Shown one piece after another: positions 5,961 to 57,942 of a DNA stretch of 64,000 nt (its first letter is position 1; each line of letters starts with the position of its first letter). This stretch comes from Klebsiella phage NU-KP11. The DNA lies in the sequence record OR644643.1, one strand, 5' to 3'. The notes beneath the pieces are model-generated. The model was not told where the DNA came from. It made no database searches and saw nothing but the letters and a program-made list of their open reading frames with translations. The position numbers and the translations under genes were made by a program.

Positions 5961-6812
5961 TTACATTAAGTCATCCAGTGTTTCAGGGTATGTATTTACG
6001 TCGCGTTTCTGATAGTTGCACACGTAGACTTCTTGCGTTTTATTTTGTTCGTAAGAATCAGTATGCTGGCCTAACAGATACTTTTTATCGAGGTTATGCA
6101 CATTATATTTTTGCATCCACTCGATCAGGATATCATTTTGCTTTCCTGCATGATGTGTAACGTTTGATAAACCAAACTTGATACCATCAGAGTTTAAATT
6201 ATCGAGAAAATCATATAATTCATGCTCTCGTTCTTCGTTCCAGAATTTGTTATAAACTGCATCAGTGATCAGGTACGGCGGATCGCAGTACACAAAATCA
6301 TTCAAACAGATATCAAGATCCTTAAACGATGCGCTAGAGAATTCAATTCCCCGAACATTATTTTTGAAGTGTTCAAACCGTTTAACGGTAGAATCATTCA
6401 ATGTTCTACAACCAAAATTGGCGTTAAAATCGCCTTTATCGTTGGTTCGATTAACATTACTAAACGAATGCAGGATTAGAACATAGAGCCATAGCGGATC
6501 CTTGTTCTTATTATATGCATCACGAAATGTGAGATACGCTTCTTTCTCGTTCTTACCCAGACCATACTGTTTAATCAATTCTCGCACCGGAGAGAGGTCA
6601 GGAAGCATTTGAAGGCGCTTATACATATCAATCAACGTCCGATCGTAATCGTTGCTTAGAACGGGTTTAGGGACGTTTAGTGACACACTCAACCCACCAC
6701 AAAAACAGTCGATGAATCGCATATAGCTGTTTCTGTCTGGAAATAATTTGAACAGTTCAGGAAGTAGCTTTTGCTTGTTTCCTGTGTATGGGATCACACC
6801 ATAATAACTCAT
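5961..6812 (-). CDS. dam: DNA adenine (N6) methyltransferase Dam
   Basis: YTGNKQKLLPEL...DCFCGGLSV (the SAM-binding motif) and VYCDPPY (the DPPY catalytic motif) are colinear with T4 Dam. Confidence 0.9.
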   Translation of the reverse strand: MSYYGVIPYTGNKQKLLPELFKLFPDRNSYMRFIDCFCGGLSVSLNVPKPVLSNDYDRTLIDMYKRLQMLPDLSPVRELIKQYGLGKNEKEAYLTFRDAYNKNKDPLWLYVLILHSFSNVNRTNDKGDFNANFGCRTLNDSTVKRFEHFKNNVRGIEFSSASFKDLDICLNDFVYCDPPYLITDAVYNKFWNEEREHELYDFLDNLNSDGIKFGLSNVTHHAGKQNDILIEWMQKYNVHNLDKKYLLGQHTDSYEQNKTQEVYVCNYQKRDVNTYPETLDDLM

Positions 6813-16899: not shown

Positions 16900-17961
16900 T
16901 TAGATTTCACTCATTTTATGAATATAGCCGTTTCGTGAATCCTGGATCTCACATTCACCGTTTTCCATGAACGCTTTCAGGATCGTTTGTACTTCCTCAC
17001 TATACTTATAATCAGCATAATCAGTTTTCCAATCTTTACCCTGTGCTTTCTGATACAGAATTTCATCAAGTACCCAATAACCGATCGGGGTAAAGCTGGT
17101 ATCACGCCACGGAATCGGGTGAACCGTCCATTTGGAAACGAGATCATCAGAATTTTGATTAACAGTTACGACACATACAGTTGATGTGATGGTATCGGAA
17201 TTCGCATCAGTGACTACAACTTTATACGAACCCGCATCATCCAGAGCCGCACTTGCCACTGTAAGAGTATCCGCATCGTCTCCAACCGGAGAATCATCCT
17301 TAGTCCATGCATAAGAATAAGGAGAAGTACCACCCAATACAGTTACACTAAGGATCAATGCAGAATCCTGTGTTACGGAAGCGGTCGGGCTTAGATTTTT
17401 ATCAAACGCAAGAGCAGGCGTAACGCTAACAGCACAAGCACTAGAAGTTTTTCTGTTACCCAGTGAATCCGTCACTTCTACCGTATATGAACCTGCATCA
17501 CCACTTGCAGCCGCGCTAATTGTTAAGGTTGCAGAATCACCACTAACAACAGTAGAACCACGTTTCCATACATAGGTATACGGGGATTTACCGCCAGTTA
17601 CCGCAACAGTCAGGGTAAGTTCTTTACCAGTAACAACAGATTTTGTTGCAGGTAAATCAGTACCAAATGCGATTACCGGATAAGTGATCACGGTGATTGT
17701 ATCAGACGTGGTTTCTGTTGCTGATTCTTCATCAGCACCGTGTTTTAAGATCAGGGTATAATCACCAGCAGTTGTACCGTCAACCGTAGTTGTGTAAGTA
17801 TCGGCGGTTGCGTCTGGAATATCTACACCATCTTTTTGCCAACGATAGGCCAGAAACACATCACCAGGATCTAGTTCAGTAGTTTCAACCTCTAAGGTCA
17901 AAGTTTCGCCAATCAAAAGTTCGTTTTTGTTGGCGCTAATTGTTACAGAAGGAATTGCCAT
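16900..17961 (-). CDS. hoc: Hoc-like outer capsid decoration protein with three Ig-like (BIG2/I-set) domains
   Basis: Three repeats of the pattern ...L.LTVAVTGG.SPY.Y.W.K.....G.....LTI....A.D.GSYTV.VTD, followed by a C-terminal domain. A TATAAATA late promoter on the minus strand sits at about 17987-17994. Confidence 0.75.
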   Translation of the reverse strand: MAIPSVTISANKNELLIGETLTLEVETTELDPGDVFLAYRWQKDGVDIPDATADTYTTTVDGTTAGDYTLILKHGADEESATETTSDTITVITYPVIAFGTDLPATKSVVTGKELTLTVAVTGGKSPYTYVWKRGSTVVSGDSATLTISAAASGDAGSYTVEVTDSLGNRKTSSACAVSVTPALAFDKNLSPTASVTQDSALILSVTVLGGTSPYSYAWTKDDSPVGDDADTLTVASAALDDAGSYKVVVTDANSDTITSTVCVVTVNQNSDDLVSKWTVHPIPWRDTSFTPIGYWVLDEILYQKAQGKDWKTDYADYKYSEEVQTILKAFMENGECEIQDSRNGYIHKMSEI

Positions 17962-22005: not shown

Positions 22006-22424
22006 TATGCACCACTTTCTAATTTACGGATCTCCAACATGTTTTTGATAGAGTATCCTTTGTTTTTGACGATATCCAGTGCTTTACTGGTGAAATCTAC
22101 CACCATGTCATAATACTGGATCAGTTTGTTGGTTTCTACAATCTTCGGATCCCCAGCGATCGCGATTTTGATTTCAGTAGTCCCAGTATACACCACTTCG
22201 CACATTTCTTTGTCATGTCTTCCGGTGTAGTACAACATACGATCCTTCACATCAGCTTCTTTTTTAGCATGAAGTTGGATCAGTTTTTTCTTCGCGTTTG
22301 AATGGTAACGAAGCCATTTAGCCCAAATCTTAGGGATATCCGCTGATTCTGATTGCAACTTGAGGGGATCTATCAGCATATCCTTTTCAAGTTCATTTTG
22401 CAGATCTTCTAATTTCAAACTCAT
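22005..22424 (-). CDS. uvsY: UvsY recombination mediator protein
   Basis: MSLKLEDLQNELEKD... is colinear with T4 UvsY (MRLEDLQEELKKD...). At 139 aa it is close to T4's 137 aa. Confidence 0.9.
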   Translation of the reverse strand: MSLKLEDLQNELEKDMLIDPLKLQSESADIPKIWAKWLRYHSNAKKKLIQLHAKKEADVKDRMLYYTGRHDKEMCEVVYTGTTEIKIAIAGDPKIVETNKLIQYYDMVVDFTSKALDIVKNKGYSIKNMLEIRKLESGA

Positions 22425-22725
22425 AACATACTCACCAATTTACCCAGTTGATCTATAATATACTATATTAATTTGTAGTCAAATTTAAATTGATCTAATA
22501 TAATATATTATTAAAAGAATAATTATACATGATCTAATTTATAAAATCAAATTTATTTTTACTTGATTTCAAAAATTATTTGATCTATAATAATTATAAT
22601 TAATAAATTTTATCATAAATCATTTATAAATTCAAGATCTAATTTAATATTAATTATAATTATTAAAAGATGGAGTAAGTTTCCCTACTCCACCTATTGA
22701 ATATTATCCCCGTTGGGTTATACTA
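22425..22725. promoter_or_regulatory. AT-rich (about 85% AT) intergenic island with 5 clustered GATC sites and sigma70-like promoters on both strands. It is a candidate oriF-like origin/regulatory region upstream of uvsY.
   Basis: GATC at about 22450, 22492, 22531, 22582 and 22636. Plus strand: TTGATT, 17 nt, TATAAT at about 22563-22591. Minus strand: TTGACT, 16 nt, TATTAT at about 22455-22482, directed at uvsY. Confidence 0.5.
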
Positions 22726-24015
22726 TCAACCCAGTTTAGGAAGTTTGATACCCACAATCTGACTCATCTTAGATTTACCTGAGAGGTTTACCCAGTCATC
22801 ACCTTTCACAAGTCTTTCGTTTGCAGCAGTGGTATATGGGTTAACCGATAAACCGTAGCGCATCAGAATAGCAACTTTAGGCTGTAAGGATTGAGGATCA
22901 ACAGAAATCTTGATCGAACCTGCCTGATCAGCTTCTGTGTATGGCGTATAGAACAGAGAGCCAACATGATCCATTTCACCCAGATCATACTTGCAACCAG
23001 TCAGCAGGTAATCAAACGGTGTATTGGTGTCAGTATAGACATAATAACCGTTTTTAAGTCGCCCTGTCGCTAACGGGTGGGTTTCATCGGTTTCATGCAT
23101 CCAACCAGACGCAGCCAGAACGCCTACAACGCGAGAAGATGCCAGGACATAGGTAGCTTCAAATGAAGTCGTTCTATTCATTTCCTGCCCCATTTCACAC
23201 ACTAATTGATACAGGAAACGACCTAAAGCCGGAGCATCCTTTGCAGTGTATGCGGTTGTAGCATCGAAAATGCCGTTTGTGATTACACCATCAACGTTGT
23301 AACGATTTGATACGTTGATCAGAGTCTGAATGATATCTTTGTTTACTTCTTCACTGGCAACAGTACCCAAAACATCTTCAATCACATTTTCTGCGTTGAA
23401 TTGGTTTGCTTCCAGATCCTGCATAAGTTCCACGGTCATTTCAGTTTTGAATTTGCGGGAACGAACGTTGATATTCCAACGATCCATTTCGAAAGAAGTT
23501 GTACTAATATCTTCGCTGGTTTCATACTGACTTGTTGGCGCGGCTTCGCTTGCCATGCGTAATTTATTGCTGAATAATGCGACCATAATCGCTTCATCAA
23601 TATCAGCACCTGCGAGAGTTACGCTATCAGTTACTTCGTATACAACATCACTTGTCGGGTGTTTGAAAACTTGGCCTTTGGTGTAGGCAGTACCAACCGT
23701 ACCATTTGAAATATTATCGCGGCTTGCATACTTACCGGAATAGGTAGCAGCGCTGGAAAACGTCATATCGCCTTTAGGGTTACGATAACGCACACCGAAC
23801 AGAGTTGCGGTAGGTAAATTAGTTTCCTGAATCGCTACAAGTTCACCGTAGATCAGGTTGTTTACCGCACGGGTAAGAGATACCAGATCCGGACGGGTAT
23901 TAGCTACGTTAATTGTTTCTGTTCCGGTTGCCTCATCAAGAACCTTTTTAGACAGGCCAGGCGGTAGCTGTGACTGACGCACCAGCTTGTTAATTGTGTA
24001 AAATTTTTCACTCAT
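22726..24015 (-). CDS. 24: Capsid vertex protein gp24
   Basis: RPDLVSLTRAVNNLIYGELVAIQETNLP... and the C-terminal VDPQSLQPKVAILMRYGLSVNPYT are colinear with T4 gp24. The track start at 24039 is TTG. The ATG at 24015 (MSEKFYT...) has an AGGAA RBS and gives about 429 aa. Confidence 0.9.
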   Translation of the reverse strand: MSEKFYTINKLVRQSQLPPGLSKKVLDEATGTETINVANTRPDLVSLTRAVNNLIYGELVAIQETNLPTATLFGVRYRNPKGDMTFSSAATYSGKYASRDNISNGTVGTAYTKGQVFKHPTSDVVYEVTDSVTLAGADIDEAIMVALFSNKLRMASEAAPTSQYETSEDISTTSFEMDRWNINVRSRKFKTEMTVELMQDLEANQFNAENVIEDVLGTVASEEVNKDIIQTLINVSNRYNVDGVITNGIFDATTAYTAKDAPALGRFLYQLVCEMGQEMNRTTSFEATYVLASSRVVGVLAASGWMHETDETHPLATGRLKNGYYVYTDTNTPFDYLLTGCKYDLGEMDHVGSLFYTPYTEADQAGSIKISVDPQSLQPKVAILMRYGLSVNPYTTAANERLVKGDDWVNLSGKSKMSQIVGIKLPKLG

Positions 24016-24102: not shown

Positions 24103-25671
24103 TTACAGCCCTTTAACGTATACTTTACGGAAGTATGCGTTTTTACCGAACATTTCTTTGGTAATCATACCAGAAGTGATACGGTCGGACGGAGCCTGAG
24201 AGCGAGAGTTCGCAAACGGGTTGATACCTACACCGTAACGAGTTTTGAAGCCCATTACTGGCTGGAAGTTCTTCGGATCAGAACCACGCAGCGGGGTCAG
24301 CGCAACATACGGAGCGTAGTAGATACCAGCATCCATTTCGTTATCGCCTTTGTAACCCACGGTGAAGTAATCACCACGTGCATACTGGTCGATGTATACT
24401 TTATACACGCCACCCAGAACACCAGCGAATACTGCTTTAGTGGTGTCAACGTTCAGAGTCTTCTGGAGACCTTGACCTGCCGGAGTGATACCGCTATCGA
24501 TACGAGCCAGAGCGGAAACCACGTTACGGGAAGCGATGATGAAGTTACCAGCACCACGACCAGTTTGACGTGCGATTTCGTTTGCTTCTTTGTCGATCTG
24601 AATCAGCAGAGCTTTGTAGCTTTCACCAGCCCAACGAGCGCCACGAACATCAATCGGATCCTGGAAGTCAAACGCACCAGCTTTAGAGCCAACGGTCTGA
24701 GTGAAACCAGTTTTACCAACCTGTGCGGTATAGTTGATCATGTCAACGATTTCGCGGTTGATTTCCAGCATGATTTCGGTTGCCAGAATAGCAGACAGTT
24801 CGGCGTCAGCGTCCATACCGTGAACAGCGCGGAGATCCTGAGCCAGTTCTACAGAGTACTGTGCTTTCAGTTGGCGGCTACGTGCTTCGATAACCTGCTT
24901 ATCGATACGGAAGCCCATTTCGTTCCACGGGTTGCCAGTAGAACCGTTGAACTGTTCTTGCAGTTCTGCTACACTGGTAGCCATACCGTAAGAAATTTCA
25001 GCCAGAGTACCTTTTTCCTGTTCGGCGATAACAGCAGCATCCAGAGCATCGTCGGTAGAACCAGTTACAGTAACCGGAGCGCCAGAAACGTTCTGGAGGA
25101 ACACACGACCAGTTTCAACGAAATCGTGGAACACAATAGCGCCGTCAGCAATAGCCTGAGCAGAAGTCAGTTTGGTAAAGCCGTTGCTCGGAGCCGCGCC
25201 CTGACCGGAGTACATGCTATCCGGGGAGAACATCGGATGGAATGCTTCTTTAGCACCGGAAGCCAGCGGATCTTTACCGTACACTGCGCGGAGAGCGAAC
25301 ACCTGACCAGTAGGGCCAGTCATCGGCTGAACACCGCAGATATCGAATGCGATCAGGTTAGGAATCGCACGGCGAACCATACCGATTACAGCAGGGCCGA
25401 TGTTGGTGATAGCACCGCTTGAGTTACCAGAAGCGATTTTGGTTGCGTCGTAACCGTGGTCACCAGCAATTTCAGCTTCCGCCAGGAAACCACCGAAGGA
25501 TTCAACGATTTTCTCGTCGCGGTAAACCGGATCAACTTCTGCGTCTTTTTCCTGTGCTTCCATAATGGCAGCAATCAGTTGTTTTTTGGATTTGGTAGCG
25601 ATATCCGGTAAGCCTTCCTGAGACTCCAGAAGATCGTTCCATTTTTCCATCAATTCGTTTTTCTTAGACAT
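24103..25671 (-). CDS. 23: Major capsid protein gp23
   Basis: The protein is 522 aa with extensive identity to T4 gp23 (GPAVIGMVRRAIPNLIAFDICGVQPM, YYAPYVALTPLRGSDPKNFQPVMGFKTRYG). A terminator hairpin lies downstream at about 24067-24084. Confidence 0.97.
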   Translation of the reverse strand: MSKKNELMEKWNDLLESQEGLPDIATKSKKQLIAAIMEAQEKDAEVDPVYRDEKIVESFGGFLAEAEIAGDHGYDATKIASGNSSGAITNIGPAVIGMVRRAIPNLIAFDICGVQPMTGPTGQVFALRAVYGKDPLASGAKEAFHPMFSPDSMYSGQGAAPSNGFTKLTSAQAIADGAIVFHDFVETGRVFLQNVSGAPVTVTGSTDDALDAAVIAEQEKGTLAEISYGMATSVAELQEQFNGSTGNPWNEMGFRIDKQVIEARSRQLKAQYSVELAQDLRAVHGMDADAELSAILATEIMLEINREIVDMINYTAQVGKTGFTQTVGSKAGAFDFQDPIDVRGARWAGESYKALLIQIDKEANEIARQTGRGAGNFIIASRNVVSALARIDSGITPAGQGLQKTLNVDTTKAVFAGVLGGVYKVYIDQYARGDYFTVGYKGDNEMDAGIYYAPYVALTPLRGSDPKNFQPVMGFKTRYGVGINPFANSRSQAPSDRITSGMITKEMFGKNAYFRKVYVKGL

Positions 25672-51656: not shown

Positions 51657-53426
51657 TTACCCCACTTGGACGGTGCCGCCAGTGATTTTTGTTAATGCGC
51701 CAGAATCAATAAACGTGTTATTCGTTGCTTTGATATTGATATCTTTAGCACCGATATCCATCGTTTCTTCAATCTCAATTTTCGCATTTTTTGCAGTGAC
51801 CGTTGCGTCTTCTGTTACAGCCACGGTTGCATTCTGTTTCACATTTGCGGTAAGATTCTGATCAACGTTAACTGTTGCATCTTTGTTTACAGTTAGTTCA
51901 GCATTGCCTTTAATCAGGCCAACGTACTCACCTTCAACCGTTTGTTGAACGTTTCCACGAACAAATTCAGTTACGTTACCATCAACCGTTTGTTGAACGT
52001 TACCCATGTTGTAAATGAACGCATCACCTTCAATAACTACCTGCAAGTTGCCTTTAACGTTGAGTTTCCGGCCCTGCATCACAATCTGATAATCATCCCC
52101 TACGATTTTAACAACGCGGGTTCCATCCGGGCGAATTTCTTCGTAACTCCCTGCTGGGTGAACACGGTTATATCGTTCGTATCCTGGGGTATCATCGAAT
52201 TCCTGAATGTGTCCGGATCTCGATTCAAACACCATGTTATACGGATATTCCGCATTATAAGATGATGCTGGTTCTTCAAACATCACACGGGTATCACCAG
52301 GAGTAAACGGATCTTCCGGACTAGCAGCCAACAATGTAGCACCGTTATACGCAGCGTAAGCAGCACTCAGAGAGCGCCCTTCCGGATCTGGTACTTGCAC
52401 CCCATATGATTCAAGGTTGCCCGTGAGGACGATTTTAGACACGCGAGAAGAACGGCCTGGAGTTTGACTAGCCCACAGTGAATTTCGAAGACCATTATAA
52501 GCCGCTTGCCAATCTTCATTTTTCATCGCTTTTAGGGTATTGGTGAATTTAGCAACACCACCGACACCCATTTGAAACGACATGTTTTCGATCGCCATTT
52601 GACGAGGACGGTTGAGGTTCACATACACTTCACGGACGTTAGCGGTTCTCTGAATATCAGATCTTACTTTGGCTAAATCTTGAGCAAATAAGGTTGATAC
52701 CTCTTCTGCCGTGATTGTTCCGTTTGTTACTTCTCGACCTACCGCTTTACTGATCGCAGCGTTAATTTTTGCAGTGTCGCGAGTCTTTTCGCGGATAAGC
52801 AAATGCCCGATCCCGATTGTCGGATATCCTTCACTGTCTGTATACCATCGTGTGCGGATCCCCTCATCCTGCTTGAGCATCTTTTCGATCGTAAATCCAC
52901 CCGTATCAGGGCGGTTATCTTCTGGTATCTCATCCAGTGGGCGATCGTCTGGGTTTACTGCTATGCTTGTGTTTGAATCACGAATGATGACACTTGATGA
53001 TCCTTTGCCTTTCAAACCACCTAATGCAAGGGAGTTAACATCGTTACCAACATAGCGAGGGTATTCACCCATAGGATCGCAAAAACCTTTCTGTGTGTCT
53101 GGTTGTTCGACATATTCACCAGCGACAGTACCGATTATCATACCATCTTGGTGCCATTTGTCACGCCAATAACCAACAACAAAGGATCCGCGAGTGATAC
53201 CAGTTGGAGAGAAGCCCACACCAGAGATCGCAGCGCTTCTAATATCCTGAATAGGCATCATCCAGGGTAAATCTTCAACAGGAACACCGATCGCATCGGA
53301 TTTTTGTTTTTGGGCTGGGTGTTGTCCAAATACACGGACTTGAACACGGCCCAACCCGCGCGGATCATCAACGTTTTCAACCACCCCATCAAAGAAAGGT
53401 GAGTGTAAATTTCCGCCTAATTTCAT
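51657..53426 (-). CDS. 5: Baseplate hub / cell-puncturing device with tail lysozyme gp5
   Basis: The N-terminal FDGVVENVDDPRGLGRVQVRVFGQHP matches T4 gp5. The lysozyme domain reads DEGIRTRWYTDSEGYPTIGIGHLL...NRPRQMAIENMSFQMGVGGVAKF. The C-terminal beta-helix has VxGNxx repeats. Confidence 0.95.
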   Translation of the reverse strand: MKLGGNLHSPFFDGVVENVDDPRGLGRVQVRVFGQHPAQKQKSDAIGVPVEDLPWMMPIQDIRSAAISGVGFSPTGITRGSFVVGYWRDKWHQDGMIIGTVAGEYVEQPDTQKGFCDPMGEYPRYVGNDVNSLALGGLKGKGSSSVIIRDSNTSIAVNPDDRPLDEIPEDNRPDTGGFTIEKMLKQDEGIRTRWYTDSEGYPTIGIGHLLIREKTRDTAKINAAISKAVGREVTNGTITAEEVSTLFAQDLAKVRSDIQRTANVREVYVNLNRPRQMAIENMSFQMGVGGVAKFTNTLKAMKNEDWQAAYNGLRNSLWASQTPGRSSRVSKIVLTGNLESYGVQVPDPEGRSLSAAYAAYNGATLLAASPEDPFTPGDTRVMFEEPASSYNAEYPYNMVFESRSGHIQEFDDTPGYERYNRVHPAGSYEEIRPDGTRVVKIVGDDYQIVMQGRKLNVKGNLQVVIEGDAFIYNMGNVQQTVDGNVTEFVRGNVQQTVEGEYVGLIKGNAELTVNKDATVNVDQNLTANVKQNATVAVTEDATVTAKNAKIEIEETMDIGAKDINIKATNNTFIDSGALTKITGGTVQVG

Positions 53427-54027: not shown

Positions 54028-54495
54028 ATGGCTGGAAGACAGACGTATAAAGGGTCGTTTGTACCCGAAAACATACAGAAGTATAAAGGCGATCCGCGAA
54101 AGATTACGTATAGGTCATCGTGGGAGCGCTACGTTATGAAGTGGCTGGATAAAAACCCACACGTAAAACGTTGGAATTCTGAATGTATAGTGATCCCGTA
54201 TTTCTGCAACGCAGACGGTAAGAGAAGGCGCTATTACATGGATTTCTATGTGGAAATGGAAAATGGTACTACATATCTTTGGGAGGTTAAGCCCCTTAAA
54301 GAAACCATGCCCCCACCGAAGCCAGTAAACAACAACGTACACAATAAAAAGAAATTTATTGATGCTCTTTACACCTATACAGTTAATATTGATAAGTGGA
54401 AAGCCGCAAATGAGCTATGCCGTCAAAAAGGCTGGCAGTTCAAAATAGTAACAGAAGAATCACTCAAAAAAGTTTTTGGGTGGCGAGGTCAGTAA
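54028..54495 (+). CDS. 4: Head completion protein gp4
   Basis: 155 aa. Position (between 53 and 2) and size match T4 gp4 (150 aa). KGSFVPENIQKY...YRSSWERYVMKWLD.NP.VKRW.SE.IVIPY is the conserved gp4-like N-terminal block. Confidence 0.65.
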   Translation: MAGRQTYKGSFVPENIQKYKGDPRKITYRSSWERYVMKWLDKNPHVKRWNSECIVIPYFCNADGKRRRYYMDFYVEMENGTTYLWEVKPLKETMPPPKPVNNNVHNKKKFIDALYTYTVNIDKWKAANELCRQKGWQFKIVTEESLKKVFGWRGQ

Positions 54496-54510: not shown

Positions 54511-55365
54511 ATGAGTTTTATTTTTGAGTTTGAGATCATCGCGGAAGAGGATAAACCCAAAGCACCACCCAAACGCAAATTGAGTGATTGGGTTGAACTT
54601 GGGATCAAATTCCGTAAGGCAAAAACGAAAGGTGTTTCTGCTAAACGTTTTGCCGATTCTGAGGGATTAAACTACGCAACGTTCACAAAGTCAATGCATC
54701 GTTACAAAAAACAGATTGATGATGAGATTGAACGACGTACAGCAGAAACAGAAGCCCGTAAAAAACGTAATGACTACCGTAAAAAACACGGGATCGAGAT
54801 CATCAACGATTTCCGTAATAGTCTGAAAAAGATCACTGTTGGTGTATCAGCGGCAAAGCGACAGAAAGATTCAACAGAATGGTTTGGTAATTTCATCAAA
54901 ACCAGTATCAAAACACACCGTGTGGCAAAACCAGCAACTGGTCGCCTATACACGTTTGCATATGATGCGAAATATAAAGACACCCTGCCGTACTGGGATA
55001 GATTTCCACTGATCATTTTCTTAGGATCCGGAAGATCGAAAGCTGGTAACTTGGTGTTCTATGGTTTGAACTTGCACTATGCGCCACCCAGAGCACGACA
55101 GGAGTTTTTAGAAGAGTTATTGAAGCGAGGGTACGGATCCACTAAACGCCTCTCTAACAAGACCGTGCTTAAAATTAACTGGGGTAACGTGAAAGGTATG
55201 CGAGGCGCAACAGAAATGATCAAAGCATATCTACCATCACACCTCAAATCACCATTAGCAGAGATTGCCCCTAAAGATTGGGCGAAAGCTGTTTGGCTAC
55301 CGACTCAGCAATTTATGTCCAAAGGGAAACCTTACGGCGCGAAAAAAGTCTGGAGCAAATACTAA
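54511..55365 (+). CDS. 2: DNA end-protector protein gp2
   Basis: 284 aa versus T4 gp2 at 274 aa, in conserved synteny. RBS GGAGGGAAACATG is present. A bidirectional terminator lies at about 55369-55395. Confidence 0.6.
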   Translation: MSFIFEFEIIAEEDKPKAPPKRKLSDWVELGIKFRKAKTKGVSAKRFADSEGLNYATFTKSMHRYKKQIDDEIERRTAETEARKKRNDYRKKHGIEIINDFRNSLKKITVGVSAAKRQKDSTEWFGNFIKTSIKTHRVAKPATGRLYTFAYDAKYKDTLPYWDRFPLIIFLGSGRSKAGNLVFYGLNLHYAPPRARQEFLEELLKRGYGSTKRLSNKTVLKINWGNVKGMRGATEMIKAYLPSHLKSPLAEIAPKDWAKAVWLPTQQFMSKGKPYGAKKVWSKY

Positions 55366-55368
55366 TCA

Positions 55369-55395
55369 AAAAGCCCCAACCGAAAGGAAGGGGCT
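55369..55395. terminator. Bidirectional terminator AGCCCCAACCGAAAGGAAGGGGCTT (copy 2), between gp2 and the moron
   Basis: The sequence is identical to copy 1 at about 21400, with A/T runs on both sides. Confidence 0.65.
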
Positions 55396-55401
55396 TTATT
55401 T

Positions 55402-56346
55402 TTACTTAGGATCGTAATGTCCGGTTTTAATTCCGGAAACAATATGTGCTACATCAAACGCTTTACCATGATCAGAACCCGCTTTACTGTAGATATGACC
55501 AAATGTAAATTTCTGGTCGTCTGATGTACGGAATACGCCGATCGGTTCTGAATCTTCGCCTTTTTCGTAGTATTCAACACTAACGACGGTTTCATATTCG
55601 AATGATTCAGTCTTTTCGTTGTAAAATTTCTTTTTTTCTACTTCCACGTAAACATCAAACTTTTTCTTTAGTGCAGCAACCAATTTTTTAACATTAGGTG
55701 AGGACTTCCCCACAACAGCTTCATTGATTTCCTCCGATTCAGCCAGAACCAGTTTAGAAACCATATCGCCTTTATATTCCTGGGTGAATTTTTTACCAGA
55801 TACCAGGCGAGGTTTGCCGGAAGCATCGACTACGGTAAACACTGCATATTCACCGCTTGCTTTAGTTTTAGAACGCCCAGTGTACAGAAGACGCATATCG
55901 TTGCTTGGGAGTTTGTAAACTTTACCTTTCACCAGAGCTTCATCCATAGGGATCTCGATTTCGAAATCTTCTGCTAACTGGTTATATAGATCCAGATTTT
56001 CTTCCGCCTCTTCATACAGAGTAGCAGCTTTGAATTTTTCTGGTTTGTCGAAATCCATATCATTATCCGGATTACCACTGTAGAAAGAAACAGTACCTTT
56101 AGCCCAATCGACATAAGCCGCTTGAACTTTACCAGTAGTCATACCTTTCAAACGTACAATGTTTTTACCGAAGTATGCCAGATCGTGAGAATCCGGTGCT
56201 AAAACTTCGAAATCAGAACCATGTTTGAAGTGAAGAAAACCGATTGAATGTTTATCGGAAGTTTTAGCGCGTTGACCACGTGCTACGGTACGAGCGAGGG
56301 TTTTACCTTCGGTCAGAAATTCTTTGAATTTTTTCAAGTGAGTCAT
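55402..56346 (-). CDS. Hypothetical protein (314-325 aa) on the opposite strand. It is a moron-like insertion between gp2 and gp3.
   Basis: Long ORF. The ATG at 56346 has an AGGAAAA RBS, and the track's upstream ATG is at 56379. It is flanked by an AT-rich promoter island and a bidirectional terminator. Confidence 0.5.
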   Translation of the reverse strand: MTHLKKFKEFLTEGKTLARTVARGQRAKTSDKHSIGFLHFKHGSDFEVLAPDSHDLAYFGKNIVRLKGMTTGKVQAAYVDWAKGTVSFYSGNPDNDMDFDKPEKFKAATLYEEAEENLDLYNQLAEDFEIEIPMDEALVKGKVYKLPSNDMRLLYTGRSKTKASGEYAVFTVVDASGKPRLVSGKKFTQEYKGDMVSKLVLAESEEINEAVVGKSSPNVKKLVAALKKKFDVYVEVEKKKFYNEKTESFEYETVVSVEYYEKGEDSEPIGVFRTSDDQKFTFGHIYSKAGSDHGKAFDVAHIVSGIKTGHYDPK

Positions 56347-56379
56347 TTTGTTTTTTCCTGATTTCCAATATGGGAACAT

Positions 56380-56716
56380 AGTACCAGTATTTAGTGACGG
56401 GGTAAAGGAAAAGTTTTCAGAAAAAGCATAAAATTTATTAGATCTAAGTATTGATCTTCATAAAAATTTATGATAAAATAAAATATTAATATATTATAGA
56501 TCATAAAATTTATGAATTCAAGATCAGATCTAAAAATTTTTGATAAATTATTTATTAAATTTTACTTGATCTTGTTAGATCTTTTTGATAAAATTTTAAT
56601 TAATAATTATTATAGATCAAAGATTTTAAAAGGTCAAGCATTTTCTTCAAATTTTTATATTACCCCGTCAGGCCGCTTTGATCCCGTTCCCCGCTAAATA
56701 GAGGAAAGGAGATCCT
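56380..56716. promoter_or_regulatory. AT-rich intergenic island between divergent genes. It has 8 GATC sites, three copies of a near-palindromic 14-mer (cATAAAATTTATgA), and sigma70-like promoters toward gp3.
   Basis: GATC at about 56441, 56453, 56509, 56522, 56527, 56568, 56578 and 56615. The 14-mer occurs at about 56427, 56459 and 56502. Two TTGATC, 17 nt, TAAAAT arrangements are present. Confidence 0.5.
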
Positions 56717-57247
56717 ATGTCTACAGAAATGATTTTAAACCAAATCTCACCTACAAACTTTCGGGTTGATATTCCTGATAACAGTTACATGAAAGGTTTG
56801 ACTTTACAAGTTCAAGGGGTTACACTACCATCAATGAACCTCCCAGCAGTTGATATTCCTGCAAATATGATGGTTCGAGGTAAAGTACCTGGTTCGGCTT
56901 TTGAGTTTGATCCTTTGATGATCCGCTTTGTAGTCGATGAGGAAATGAGATCGTATCTTGGGATTTACATATGGATGTTGAGCACAAACGATTATAACGA
57001 GTTTAACTCTGTTGCGTGGGATGATCCTAAGCAATCATTCGCTGTGCATATCCTGGATAACTCCCAGATGAAAACGATCGCCACATTTAGATTTTATGGT
57101 GCCTTCCCAACAAACTTGGGTGAGGTTGAATTGGGTTATACTAACGATAGTGATGAAGCGGTTACGTGTATGGCAACTTTTGGCTTCCTTCATATGGAAG
57201 TTGAAATTGACGGAAAAGTAGTCACTTCTCAAAAGAGAATGAGCTAA
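56717..57247 (+). CDS. 3: Tail completion / sheath stabiliser protein gp3
   Basis: 176 aa, equal to the T4 gp3 size, positioned immediately upstream of gene 1. RBS AGGAAAGGAGATCCTATG is present. Confidence 0.6.
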   Translation: MSTEMILNQISPTNFRVDIPDNSYMKGLTLQVQGVTLPSMNLPAVDIPANMMVRGKVPGSAFEFDPLMIRFVVDEEMRSYLGIYIWMLSTNDYNEFNSVAWDDPKQSFAVHILDNSQMKTIATFRFYGAFPTNLGEVELGYTNDSDEAVTCMATFGFLHMEVEIDGKVVTSQKRMS

Positions 57248-57942
57248 TGATTTATGTGATTAGTGGAAAAAAGCGAACTGGTAAAGATACGGTTGCTAAA
57301 TTTATTCAAGAGGCGTACAATGATGTTCAGTGTGAAGCACTGGCATTTGGTATCAAAAGAACGCTAAGAGTAGCAATGCAGCGGTATGGTTACGATAAAC
57401 CATACATTCGCAATCTGGTTGAAGGAAAATATTCTGATCCGGATGCTATTTTTTATGAAGGCGATCGAGAGAAACCTCTTGTGATTTCTAATGAAGATGT
57501 CCTAAATATTTTCAGAATCGGGCTTGAAATCCTCAAAGAACGCGGATACAATATTGTTTACAGTCCGGATGATATTCATAACCTGATTATGCGTAACGAT
57601 ACCCCCTGGAGTATCAGACGCTTGATGCAAGTGTTTGGAACTGATATCGTATGCAAGTATGATAACACGGTTTGGGTTCGTTACACGTTGGAAAGATTCG
57701 TCAATAAATATACTGGTGACGAATACAACCATCTTCTGGTCACTGACTGTCGCCAGGAACACGAATATAAATACCTGAAACGCTTGGGTGCTAAGTTTGT
57801 GTTTATTGTAAAGGATACCGGAATTGTTGATGAACATTCCACGGAAAAAGGTTTGACACCTCAACCGGGAGATAGTATCATCACTAACGAAGGTACTTTG
57901 AAACAACTAAAGAGCAAAGTGCTCGATACTTTTAAATTTTAA
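57247..57942 (+). CDS. 1: Deoxynucleoside monophosphate kinase gp1
   Basis: ISGKKRTGKDTVAKFI (P-loop), WSIRRLMQVFGTDIV, VTDCRQEHE and IITNEGTLKQLKSKV are colinear with T4 gp1. Confidence 0.9.
   Translation: MIYVISGKKRTGKDTVAKFIQEAYNDVQCEALAFGIKRTLRVAMQRYGYDKPYIRNLVEGKYSDPDAIFYEGDREKPLVISNEDVLNIFRIGLEILKERGYNIVYSPDDIHNLIMRNDTPWSIRRLMQVFGTDIVCKYDNTVWVRYTLERFVNKYTGDEYNHLLVTDCRQEHEYKYLKRLGAKFVFIVKDTGIVDEHSTEKGLTPQPGDSIITNEGTLKQLKSKVLDTFKF

Follow-up and report, generated by a model that had tools for sequence, protein, structure and literature searches.

A GATC-dense AT-rich island between gp3 and a divergent gene of Klebsiella phage NU-KP11: a putative Dam-marked bidirectional early promoter cluster

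The sequence considered here is a stretch of 64,000 nucleotides (the window, whose numbering is used throughout) from Klebsiella phage NU-KP11 (record OR644643.1), a T4-like phage of the genus Slopekvirus (KP15/Matisse group), and the feature under study is a non-coding AT-rich island, termed island 2, that lies between gp3 and a gene to which no function is assigned, the phrog_7322 gene. From 55400 to 57300 the sequence shares 99-99.7% identity with about 110 Klebsiella T4-like Slopekvirus phages, among them KMI7, Matisse, Miro, KP15 and phT4A. A first-pass annotation of the window had set the island between divergently transcribed genes, and the minus-strand gene at 55402-56346 and plus-strand gp3 at 56717-57247 do flank it. 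The label of moron that the former had received is doubtful, given that the gene is kept at its position in two genera. In T4, gp2 and gp3 are adjacent with no intervening gene; in Pseudotevenvirus the phrog_7322 gene and a divergent spacer are found at the equivalent position, and the gene is therefore a conserved resident of that position in the two genera. It has neither a Pfam hit nor a PDB relative and thus provides no functional clue. An Rfam scan of 55300-57300 at E <= 1 returned no known RNA element, and an open reading frame (ORF) of 61 codons inside the island (56512-56697), hypothetical in some records, was treated as spurious because it is AT-rich and without a ribosome-binding site. 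The features of the locus are collected in Table 1.

Table 1. Island 2, its constituent sites and neighboring genes, with related elements elsewhere (window positions unless a contig is named)
Feature	Position	Strand	Remarks
Phage Dam (GATC adenine) methyltransferase gene, T4 Dam orthologue	5961..6812	-	TIGR00571 dam, E = 3e-43; T4 Dam structures 1YFJ/1Q0S, E = 3e-85
Sister island gp24|uvsY (the 'first island' of the first-pass annotation)	22425..22725	.	10-12% G+C; 5 GATC in core, 7 overall; TGATCTATAAT twice
gp4	54028-54495	+	
gp2	54511-55365	+	
314-aa gene, phrog_7322, no assigned function	55402-56346	-	PHROG E = 3e-127
Non-coding island (island 2)	56347-56716	.	
Outer inverted repeat, left arm TGACGGGGTAA	56395..56405	.	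perfectly complementary to 56660-56670; bounds the AT-rich island
AT-rich core	56420..56640	.	15.4% G+C, 221 bp, 8 GATC
14-mer copy 1, CATAAAATTTATTA	56427..56440	+	1 mismatch
Eight Dam sites (GATC)	56441..56618	.	starts 56441, 56453, 56499, 56522, 56527, 56568, 56578, 56615
Two tandem ~115-bp units	56451..56638	.	56451-56522 and 56566-56638; seen from direct repeats and fold
P+A, TTGATC-N14-TGA-TAAAAT, extended -10	56451..56479	+	towards gp3/gene 1; direct-repeat partner of 56566-56594; spacer holds 14-mer copy 2
14-mer copy 2, CATAAAAATTTATGA	56459..56473	+	15-mer with extra A; missed by ungapped search
P-B, TTGAAT-tcataaattttatgatc-TATAAT	56493..56521	-	towards 314-aa gene; 10/12 consensus; 15.8 bits
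14-mer copy 3, CATAAAATTTATGA	56502..56515	+	exact
Central palindrome AGATCAGATCT	56521..56531	.	between tandem units, directly upstream of -35 of leftward site 56521..56493
P+B, TTGATC-N14-TGA-TAAAAT	56566..56594	+	towards gp3/gene 1
P-A, TTGACC-ttttaaaatctttgatc-TATAAT	56609..56637	-	towards 314-aa gene; 11/12 consensus; 16.5 bits
Outer inverted repeat, right arm TTACCCCGTCA	56660..56670	.	
gp3 ribosome-binding site AGGAAAGGAG and ATG	56702..56719	+	ribosome-binding site annotated at the equivalent place in Matisse
gp3, tail completion / tail tube terminator protein	56717-57247	+	
Gene 1, dNMP kinase	57247-57942	+	3' neighbor of gp3
57A	after gene 1	+	
Pseudotevenvirus element, Cronobacter phage leE copies	L010:31351-31558, L012:3752-3959, L012:39433-39640		
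Pseudotevenvirus element, Citrobacter phage Miller	L007:3290-3470		

The AT-richness of the island and the clustering of its Dam sites, both claimed in the first pass, can be read directly from the sequence. At 15.4% G+C, the core (56420-56640) carries eight GATC within 178 bp, including the close pairs GATCAGATC (56522-56530) and GATCTTGTTAGATC (56568-56581) as described, and two further GATC of the island, at 56680 and 56711, lie outside this cluster. Base composition predicts 0.22 GATC in the core (Poisson P = 1e-10); none of 20,000 shuffles of the core reached eight, the maximum being three, and 47% of the G+C bases of the core belong to GATC. When the cores of the three islands of the genome (see below) are pooled, 22 GATC are observed where 0.7 are expected, an excess of about 30-fold, and each of the 23 other words made by reordering these four letters occurs 0-3 times. 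GATC is over-represented genome-wide too, with 445 in the window against 237 expected from base composition, and its density is 6.3-7.0 per kb in all three genomes checked (window, phT4A and leE).

The same DNA is dense in sites resembling sigma-70 promoters. A consensus scan of 700 bp found 12, compared with 3.1 +/- 1.9 in 50 dinucleotide shuffles, which is more than composition gives. Four are strong: they match 9-11 of the 12 consensus positions, score 14.0-16.5 bits with a position weight matrix (PWM) and have hexamers near TTGACA and TATAAT at the usual distance of 16-18 bp, and two of them have an extended -10 TGn. Each rightward site is made up of a -35-like hexamer, a 17-bp spacer that ends in the extended -10 TG, and a hexamer of the -10 kind. 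All four sites are upstream of the genes at which they point, the rightward ones at distances of 115 and 230 nt from gp3/gene 1 and the leftward ones at 140 and 255 nt from the 314-aa gene. The pattern TTGAYY-N16-18-TAWAAT has eight matches in the 64-kb window (0.68 expected), six of them in its two islands, and in a genome-wide PWM scan 13 of the 54 top-scoring sites fall in the roughly 0.5% of the genome that the three islands occupy. Several island sites, both leftward ones included, appear in a supplementary table of host promoters predicted for phage KP27 with a MEME-based method (P-B as 100632-100660 and P-A as 100516-100544; Table S3, PMC5219037), in a paper that does not comment on the islands or on GATC. 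The Dam sites are fitted to this arrangement, in that two of the eight are the GATC of a TTGATC -35, two abut TATAAT, one lies inside a spacer and three lie just upstream of a -35, all eight thus occupying promoter-related positions.

The promoter-like sites are carried by repeats. Direct repeats of 29 and 31 nt, each present as a pair and separated by 115 and 116 bp, divide the core into two tandem units of ~115 bp, each an imperfect palindrome with one rightward and one leftward site; the best ungapped direct repeat of the island is equalled in one of 200 shuffles. As single-stranded DNA (ssDNA) the island folds at -44 kcal/mol, compared with -22 +/- 3 in shuffles (z = -6.8), in a layout in which the outer stem TGACGGGGTAA/TTACCCCGTCA surrounds two internal hairpins, and the 11-bp arms of this stem belong to a 42-nt arm pair that is 74% complementary.

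These longer repeats, and not the 14-mer emphasized in the first-pass annotation, are the real signal. The 14-mer had been described as repeated three times; the positions and the spacings of 32 and 43 bp hold, but only two copies are ungapped and the third requires an extra base. That copy (56459-56473) is a perfect inverted repeat, TCATAAA-AA-TTTATGA, and copy 3 matches the minus strand as well because it is near-palindromic. Repetition of the 14-mer within the island is not significant, a further ungapped copy at <=1 mismatch being found in 41 of 300 dinucleotide shuffles. A motif search of the 64-kb window, the check that had been proposed, gave four matches at <=2 mismatches, three in island 2 and one in the gp24-uvsY island. 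The 14-mer is therefore not a genome-wide compositional word, being infrequent elsewhere in the window, but the number of matches is itself insignificant (1.8 expected; 11 of 100 shuffles reach four). Its location is that of the 17-bp spacer of the promoter-like units, where a local palindrome has copies of the 14-mer as its two arms: the exact copy at 56502-56515 is, on the opposite strand, the spacer of the leftward site 56521..56493, the 15-mer at 56459-56473 is the spacer of the rightward site 56451-56479, and the two are mirror images across the center of the first ~115-bp unit. The 14-mer would thus be seen three times because the promoter units are duplicated and palindromic.

Island 2 is a member of a small family. 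Only two stretches of the window fall below 25% G+C, island 2 and 22351-22770 between gp24 and uvsY, and when the gap-free KP15 sequence was joined to the window, the two together covering the genome, exactly three islands with a minimum G+C of <=0.18 were found, at rnh|gene 55, gp3|phrog_7322 (island 2) and gp24|uvsY, with 9, 10 and 7 GATC, respectively. Searched with island 2, blastn likewise finds three places in most complete Slopekvirus genomes. The phT4A draft shows 13 apparent AT islands, of which nine are runs of N and one, at 24991-25190, is a marginal non-island (27% G+C, one GATC). What is common to the three islands is an 11-mer, TGATCTATAAT, set in a 29-nt promoter-like unit, and not the 14-mer. 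The 11-mer occurs five times in the genome, in the islands only, where 0.23 occurrences are expected genome-wide and 0.003 in the cores. Two related classes of site, TTGAnn-N12-TGATC-TATAAT and TTGAnn-N14-TGA-TAAAAT, recur in all three islands and form two promoter-like families in which 20 of 29 and 19 of 29 positions are invariant. Island sites point at rnh-dsbA-33-59-32, 55-47-46, uvsY, the phrog_7322 gene and gp3-gene 1-57A, the gp24|uvsY island having three tandem promoter-like sites towards uvsY and one opposite. The rnh|55 and gp24|uvsY islands are weakly palindromic (z = -2.9 and -2.3), and a boundary motif, ACGGGG(n)TAA, that seemed to be shared by all three islands was not robust.

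Among the uvsY-upstream regions of 37 T4-like contigs, the combination of AT-richness with GATC is confined to Slopekvirus. In other T4-like genera (L043, L046, L059) tandem promoter units of the GTTTAC...TATAGAAT type flank a short G/C hairpin that precedes uvsY, and these regions are AT-rich but have 0-1 GATC. Repeated promoters are therefore a general feature of the DNA ahead of uvsY, and the GATC bias is specific to Slopekvirus. In the papers searched, nothing was found that links Slopekvirus or T4-like phages to GATC clusters or AT-rich islands.

The island is tightly conserved. Strains differ by 0.3-0.8% in the island, by 1.4-2.1% in gp2 and the neighbor gene and by 3.3-3.6% in gene 1, gp3 alone being as conserved as the island; small as the numbers are, they point to purifying selection on the island. 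Two records depart from the common structure. In KpCCP1 (L014:1201-1597 against window 56498-56525) there is an extra tandem unit of 28 bp, AGATCATAAAATTTATGAATTCAAGATC, bounded by GATC, and the copy number of the 14-mer-bearing unit is therefore strain-variable. In KP13MC5-1 (L016:1200-1710) island 2 is represented by its right half, from the central ATCAGATCT onward, which is fused to part of a homing-endonuclease gene of the AP2 type and to a methyltransferase gene that sits about 85 kb away in KP15 (17130-17915). The junction falls at the central palindrome (56521-56531) and is either a true rearrangement at the palindrome center or a misassembly.

The phage encodes its own Dam methyltransferase (Table 1), which is the enzyme expected to modify the clustered GATC, and genes for Dam and Dcm are reported for all members of the genus (PMC5219037). 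A hint of modification comes from the CPRSB record (L015:1-969), which differs from window 56047-57016 at 20 places in 940 nt, 11 of the 20 inside GATC tetramers, which hold 6% of the bases. The differences are mostly G>A and C>T, include GATC in coding sequence, and split gp3. Nanopore basecalling errors at N6-methyladenine (6mA) are a known pattern. The concentration of the CPRSB differences in GATC resembles it and is therefore an indirect hint that the GATC sites of virion DNA may be methylated.

The architecture of the sequence, the statistics, the membership of a family, the conservation and the presence of a Dam gene favor, with a probability of roughly 0.55, the interpretation that island 2 is a Dam-marked bidirectional cluster of early sigma-70 promoters, of a private class limited to the three islands. 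A regulated early-promoter cluster was one of three readings offered in the first-pass annotation, next to a second origin and a binding-site array, and it is the one that the 12 sigma-70-like sites (against 3.1), the two site families and the KP27 predictions support best. According to this interpretation, host RNA polymerase with sigma-70 would initiate early transcripts both leftward and rightward in a neighborhood otherwise made up of late genes. The leftward promoter of each ~115-bp unit (TTGAnn-N12-TGATC-TATAAT) would serve the 314-aa gene, and the rightward promoter (TTGATC-N14-TGA-TAAAAT) would serve gp3, gene 1, 57A and, farther on, a long block of small early genes. The other two islands would head rnh-dsbA-33-59-32 / 55-47-46 and uvsY, so that the three together would represent a separate promoter class for replication, recombination and late-transcription genes, distinct from the terminator-linked early promoters discussed below. 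GATC would be built into the promoter architecture (in the -35, abutting the -10 or upstream of the -35) as substrate for the phage Dam, and methylation could act on promoter strength directly, or via host SeqA, which would bind the clusters once a first replication round has left them hemimethylated. That the sites fire in vivo, fire early and respond to methylation state is inferred from their sequence.

Several points weigh against a promoter cluster. AT-rich palindromic DNA yields -10 and -35 look-alikes on both strands, and no transcription-start or expression data for Slopekvirus were found in the literature searched. The rightward and leftward sites of each unit share a predicted start (~56486 and ~56602) and read through each other, which is odd for genuine promoters, so that one orientation may be a mirror image without function. 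In the sister island, TGATCTATAAT at 22449 (+) has no -35 in that orientation, and at 22581 (+) it points antisense into gp24. The sigma-70 consensus leaves unexplained why it is GATC, and not some other G/C-containing word, that shows the 30-fold enrichment. The sites of island 2 do lie upstream of, and point at, genes needing an early start, with the caveat that gp3 is a late gene in T4, so that an early promoter immediately before it makes sense only if transcription continues into gene 1.

The island is not categorically new, since the kinds underlying it are known: T4-type early promoters, origins made of a promoter and an unwinding element, and Dam-site clusters. With T4-type early promoters and the tandem clusters upstream of uvsY it shares the hexamer spacing of 16-18 bp, A/T-rich upstream tracts, tandem copies and a place at the head of early units. 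It differs from them in being extremely AT-rich over ~250 bp, in having sites palindromically face to face, in the restriction of its class to three loci, in carrying GATC in the -35, abutting the -10 or upstream, and in a -35 of TTGAyy in place of the GTTTAC type of other T4-like genera. Promoter early stem-loop (PeSL) cassettes, described in RB49/phi1 and other T4-like phages, fuse one promoter to a G/C-rich terminator stem-loop and number dozens per genome (51 in RB49), in hyperplastic regions (PMC2839356, PMC4122927). Island 2 resembles them as an intergenic cassette with a sigma-70-like promoter, an AT-rich upstream region and an association with gene-content differences between close relatives, but it lacks a stem-loop of this kind and has several promoters in both directions and three family members only; a search of 56200-56900 for terminator-like sites found none, and the G/C-rich stems of this genome's PeSL-like promoters are absent. 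In this genome the ordinary early promoters are composites resembling PeSLs, TTGACTTCGGTCGGGGGCTTTTGTTATATT, with the -35 inside a G/C-rich terminator hairpin (phT4A 5965, 50320, 60292, 76649, 87391 and 166514; KP15 Table S2 of PMC5219037), and the KP15 GenBank record labels them 'putative middle promoter'. As for Dam-site clusters, the eight GATC in AT-rich DNA recall a third kind of system. Clusters under Dam control are known from E. coli oriC (11 GATC in 245 bp), the dnaA promoter region, P1 oriR and the P1 pac site. Island 2 shares with them the density of GATC, AT-rich DNA by or in promoters and an available Dam enzyme; unlike them, the islands have no DnaA boxes, GATCTnTTnTTTT 13-mers or IHF site, lie in a lytic phage with headful-type relatives and are present in three copies per genome instead of one.

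The sister genus adds an unexpected parallel. Pseudotevenvirus genomes (Cronobacter phage leE, Citrobacter phage Miller, RB43 and related contigs) contain exactly three same-orientation copies of an element of ~170-190 bp, at the same sites as the Slopekvirus islands: rnh|55, gp3|phrog_7322 and gp24|uvsY. The element is found in further contigs (L077, L080, L084, L096, L097, L104, L105, L107, L113 and L123), and no published description of it was found in the papers searched. Outer G/C-rich arms, GAGCGAAGCGAG...CTCGCTTCGCTC, and nested stems enclose an invariant AT-rich center, TATATTTTATATATAGAG, and the whole folds as a single long hairpin (z = -12.4), a case that rests on the single-sequence fold and on reading of the alignment, the RNAalifold consensus being poor because the right arm is misaligned. 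Copies within a genome have a common inner-stem variant, and between genomes both sides of the stem change: GTACTGTTT/AAACAGTAC in leE, ACTACAT/ATGTAGT in RB43-like phages and ATGTCC/GGACAT in two distant contigs. A change in the outer arm is likewise compensated (GAGCGTAGCGAG with CTCGCTACGCTC). The flanking genes have sigma-70-like promoters immediately beyond the element, so that at two of the three sites it is a DNA feature set between divergent promoters. The element resembles the islands in its three equivalent sites, its long imperfect palindrome, its AT-rich center and its flanking-gene promoters; it differs in having no detectable sequence similarity to them, G/C-rich arms, a single hairpin, 2-4 GATC and three near-identical same-orientation copies. 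Equivalent sites occupied by different sequence families in two genera imply that the three-site pattern is older than either family, which argues for a function of the sites beyond supplying a promoter.

An 8-mer, ACCCAGTT, stands on both sides of the gp24|uvsY island, at 22442-22449 (gp24 end) and 22722-22729 (just upstream of the uvsY ribosome-binding site), and a similar pair, AACTGG(G)T, flanks the leE element; chance or an insertion trace could explain these.

Such a function could be replication. The first-pass suggestion of a second origin is plausible for island 2, and in its full form, which extends rather than replaces the promoter interpretation, it holds that the islands are also promoter-primed origins like T4 oriF and oriE, the three primary origins of the phage; this is a tentative proposal, clearly less probable than a promoter cluster. 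An island transcript would enter ~200 bp of DNA with 13-15% G+C, stay as an R-loop, be trimmed by RNase H and prime the leading strand, and once the origin had fired, the Dam sites would allow control through hemimethylation, as happens at E. coli oriC and P1 oriR. In T4, minimal oriF and oriG consist of a middle promoter and an A+T-rich unwinding element, oriE has an early promoter and 12-nt iterons whose role is unexplained, and oriE, oriF and oriG lie at transcription strand-switch points with shifts in compositional skew; the origins share no sequence motif, and none has been defined in any relative (PMC3016281).

Several of these properties are found again in the islands, whose sites read into ~200 bp of 13-15% G+C, a promoter followed by an A+T-rich unwinding element, and which lie at strand switches among late genes, exactly three per genome. 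The gp24|uvsY island occupies the place of T4 oriF (uvsY start, 115321), island 2 lies in the gene 5-53-4-2-3 block that is home to oriE, and the rnh|55 island adjoins rnh, within 2.2 kb of which oriG is found. Some island promoters run antisense into late genes, like the primer RNAs of T4 oriE and oriG; island 2 is strongly palindromic and conserved; and the equivalent sites of the sister genus carry a palindromic three-copy element with an AT-rich center, whose copies co-evolve within a genome. The correspondence weakens on closer comparison. Only the uvsY site is truly syntenic with a T4 origin, oriE lying inside gene 5, 3.4 kb from the gp2/gp3 junction, and oriG inside gene 34, 2.2 kb from rnh, so that one island matches in exact position and the other two only in region. 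In phT4A the cumulative GC-skew reaches its minima at the rnh|55 island and at a point 2 kb away from island 2, but these coincide with gene-strand switches and therefore carry no independent information. The other two islands are only weakly palindromic, and AT-richness with promoters is also expected of a plain strong promoter region.

Nor do the islands share the machinery or the motifs of characterized origins. A tblastn search with T4 MotA and AsiA against a whole Slopekvirus genome and leE gave hits with E > 1 only, and the island sites have ordinary -35 hexamers in place of the Mot box at -30 that marks the MotA-dependent middle promoters of oriF and oriG. The likeness to oriE extends to early-type promoters, but the repeats are two 115-bp units and a 14/15-mer at 32 and 43 bp in place of evenly spaced 12-nt iterons, and no RepEB homologue was found. 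A similarity to T4 RepEA at 52139-52276 (+), antisense in gp5 (51657-53426, -) as in T4, reaches 43% over 46 residues (E = 2e-4); this stretch has no start codon and no ORF of >=30 codons and is probably a shadow of gp5 conservation. DnaA boxes, oriC-type 13-mers and IHF sites, which an initiator-controlled origin of the oriC or P1 oriR type would have, are absent from the window's two islands, neither of which contains TTWTNCACA, TTATNCANA, GATCTNTTNTTTT or the IHF consensus. The T4 late promoter, TATAAATA, does not occur in them either. A further difference is that T4 origins are motif-less and not GATC clusters, whereas the islands share motifs.

A broader proposal, more doubtful than the origin interpretation of the islands themselves, takes the Slopekvirus islands and the Pseudotevenvirus elements together as the primary R-loop origins of MotA-less T4-like phages, with firing, promoters or both switched by the state of Dam methylation. 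The genome would enter the cell fully methylated; the first replication round would leave it hemimethylated, and host SeqA would then bind it. If true, this would give the T4 family a sequence-defined, comparable set of origins, unlike the motif-less origins of T4.

The binding-site array proposed in the first pass fares worse. It would make the 14-mers or the TGATC words operators or iterons for a dimeric phage DNA-binding protein, either a repressor or an initiator that melts the island, and it is improbable. Two copies do contain the perfect inverted repeat TCATAAA-N1-2-TTTATGA, the spacers are unusually conserved (19-20 of 29 positions invariant), as protein contact with the spacer would explain, and T4 oriE offers a precedent of iterons, their role being unexplained (PMC3016281). 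The array itself falls short of the three or more well-conserved, regularly spaced copies above chance that iterons display: only two copies are ungapped, their number is insignificant, the half-sites are 1 or 2 nt apart depending on the copy, and copy number varies among strains. The 14-mer is rather a promoter spacer, recent duplication of the unit explains spacer conservation equally well, the rnh|55 island has no good copy and the gp24|uvsY island a degenerate one only. No candidate binding protein came up, the adjacent gene having no recognizable DNA-binding domain.

Least probable is a reading of the island as chiefly a recombination-prone or selfish palindromic spacer, an exchange hotspot similar to a PeSL or a miniature inverted-repeat transposable element (MITE) whose promoter-like and GATC content is incidental, for although the flanking 11-bp inverted repeats and overall palindrome, the 28-bp duplication in one strain and the junction to an unrelated genome region exactly at the palindrome center in another, the swapped 3' part of the neighbor gene, the public records and metagenome contigs that start or end inside islands and the concerted evolution of the sister-genus copies would all suit it, a passive spacer is not expected to have a 30-fold motif-specific GATC excess or an island-confined 11-mer, to occupy equivalent sites in two genera or to be conserved more tightly than its neighbors, and contigs commonly end at palindromes through assembly artefacts.

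T4 is the classic model of replication that depends on origins and on recombination, and the three islands, with their shared signature of extreme AT content, 30-fold GATC excess and a private promoter class, provide short DNA targets for asking what defines origins or immediate-early control regions in T4-like phages that lack MotA. They also raise the question of a regulatory function for the phage-encoded Dam methylase, T4 Dam having long been without a known role. Should they be 'only' strong promoters, they would be an ordinary regulatory region with an unusual bias in methylation sites.

There is a practical side as well, in that the islands break assemblies and attract nanopore errors in the genomes of therapeutic Klebsiella phages. 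The phiKp_5 record (H101) ends at window ~56587, the phiKp_9 record (H103) begins at ~56509, and the IMG/VR contigs L020 and L023 begin in the uvsY-upstream element. Such ends are most simply explained as assembly breaks at AT-rich inverted repeats, physical DNA ends being a less likely alternative.

The 3' third of the phrog_7322 gene (window 55402-55718) varies among strains. Its product has 314 aa in the window and KMI7 and 262 aa in Matisse and most others, and the Matisse-type version matches the window only from 55718 onward. The 3' part looks like a swapped C-terminal module beside a bidirectional terminator.

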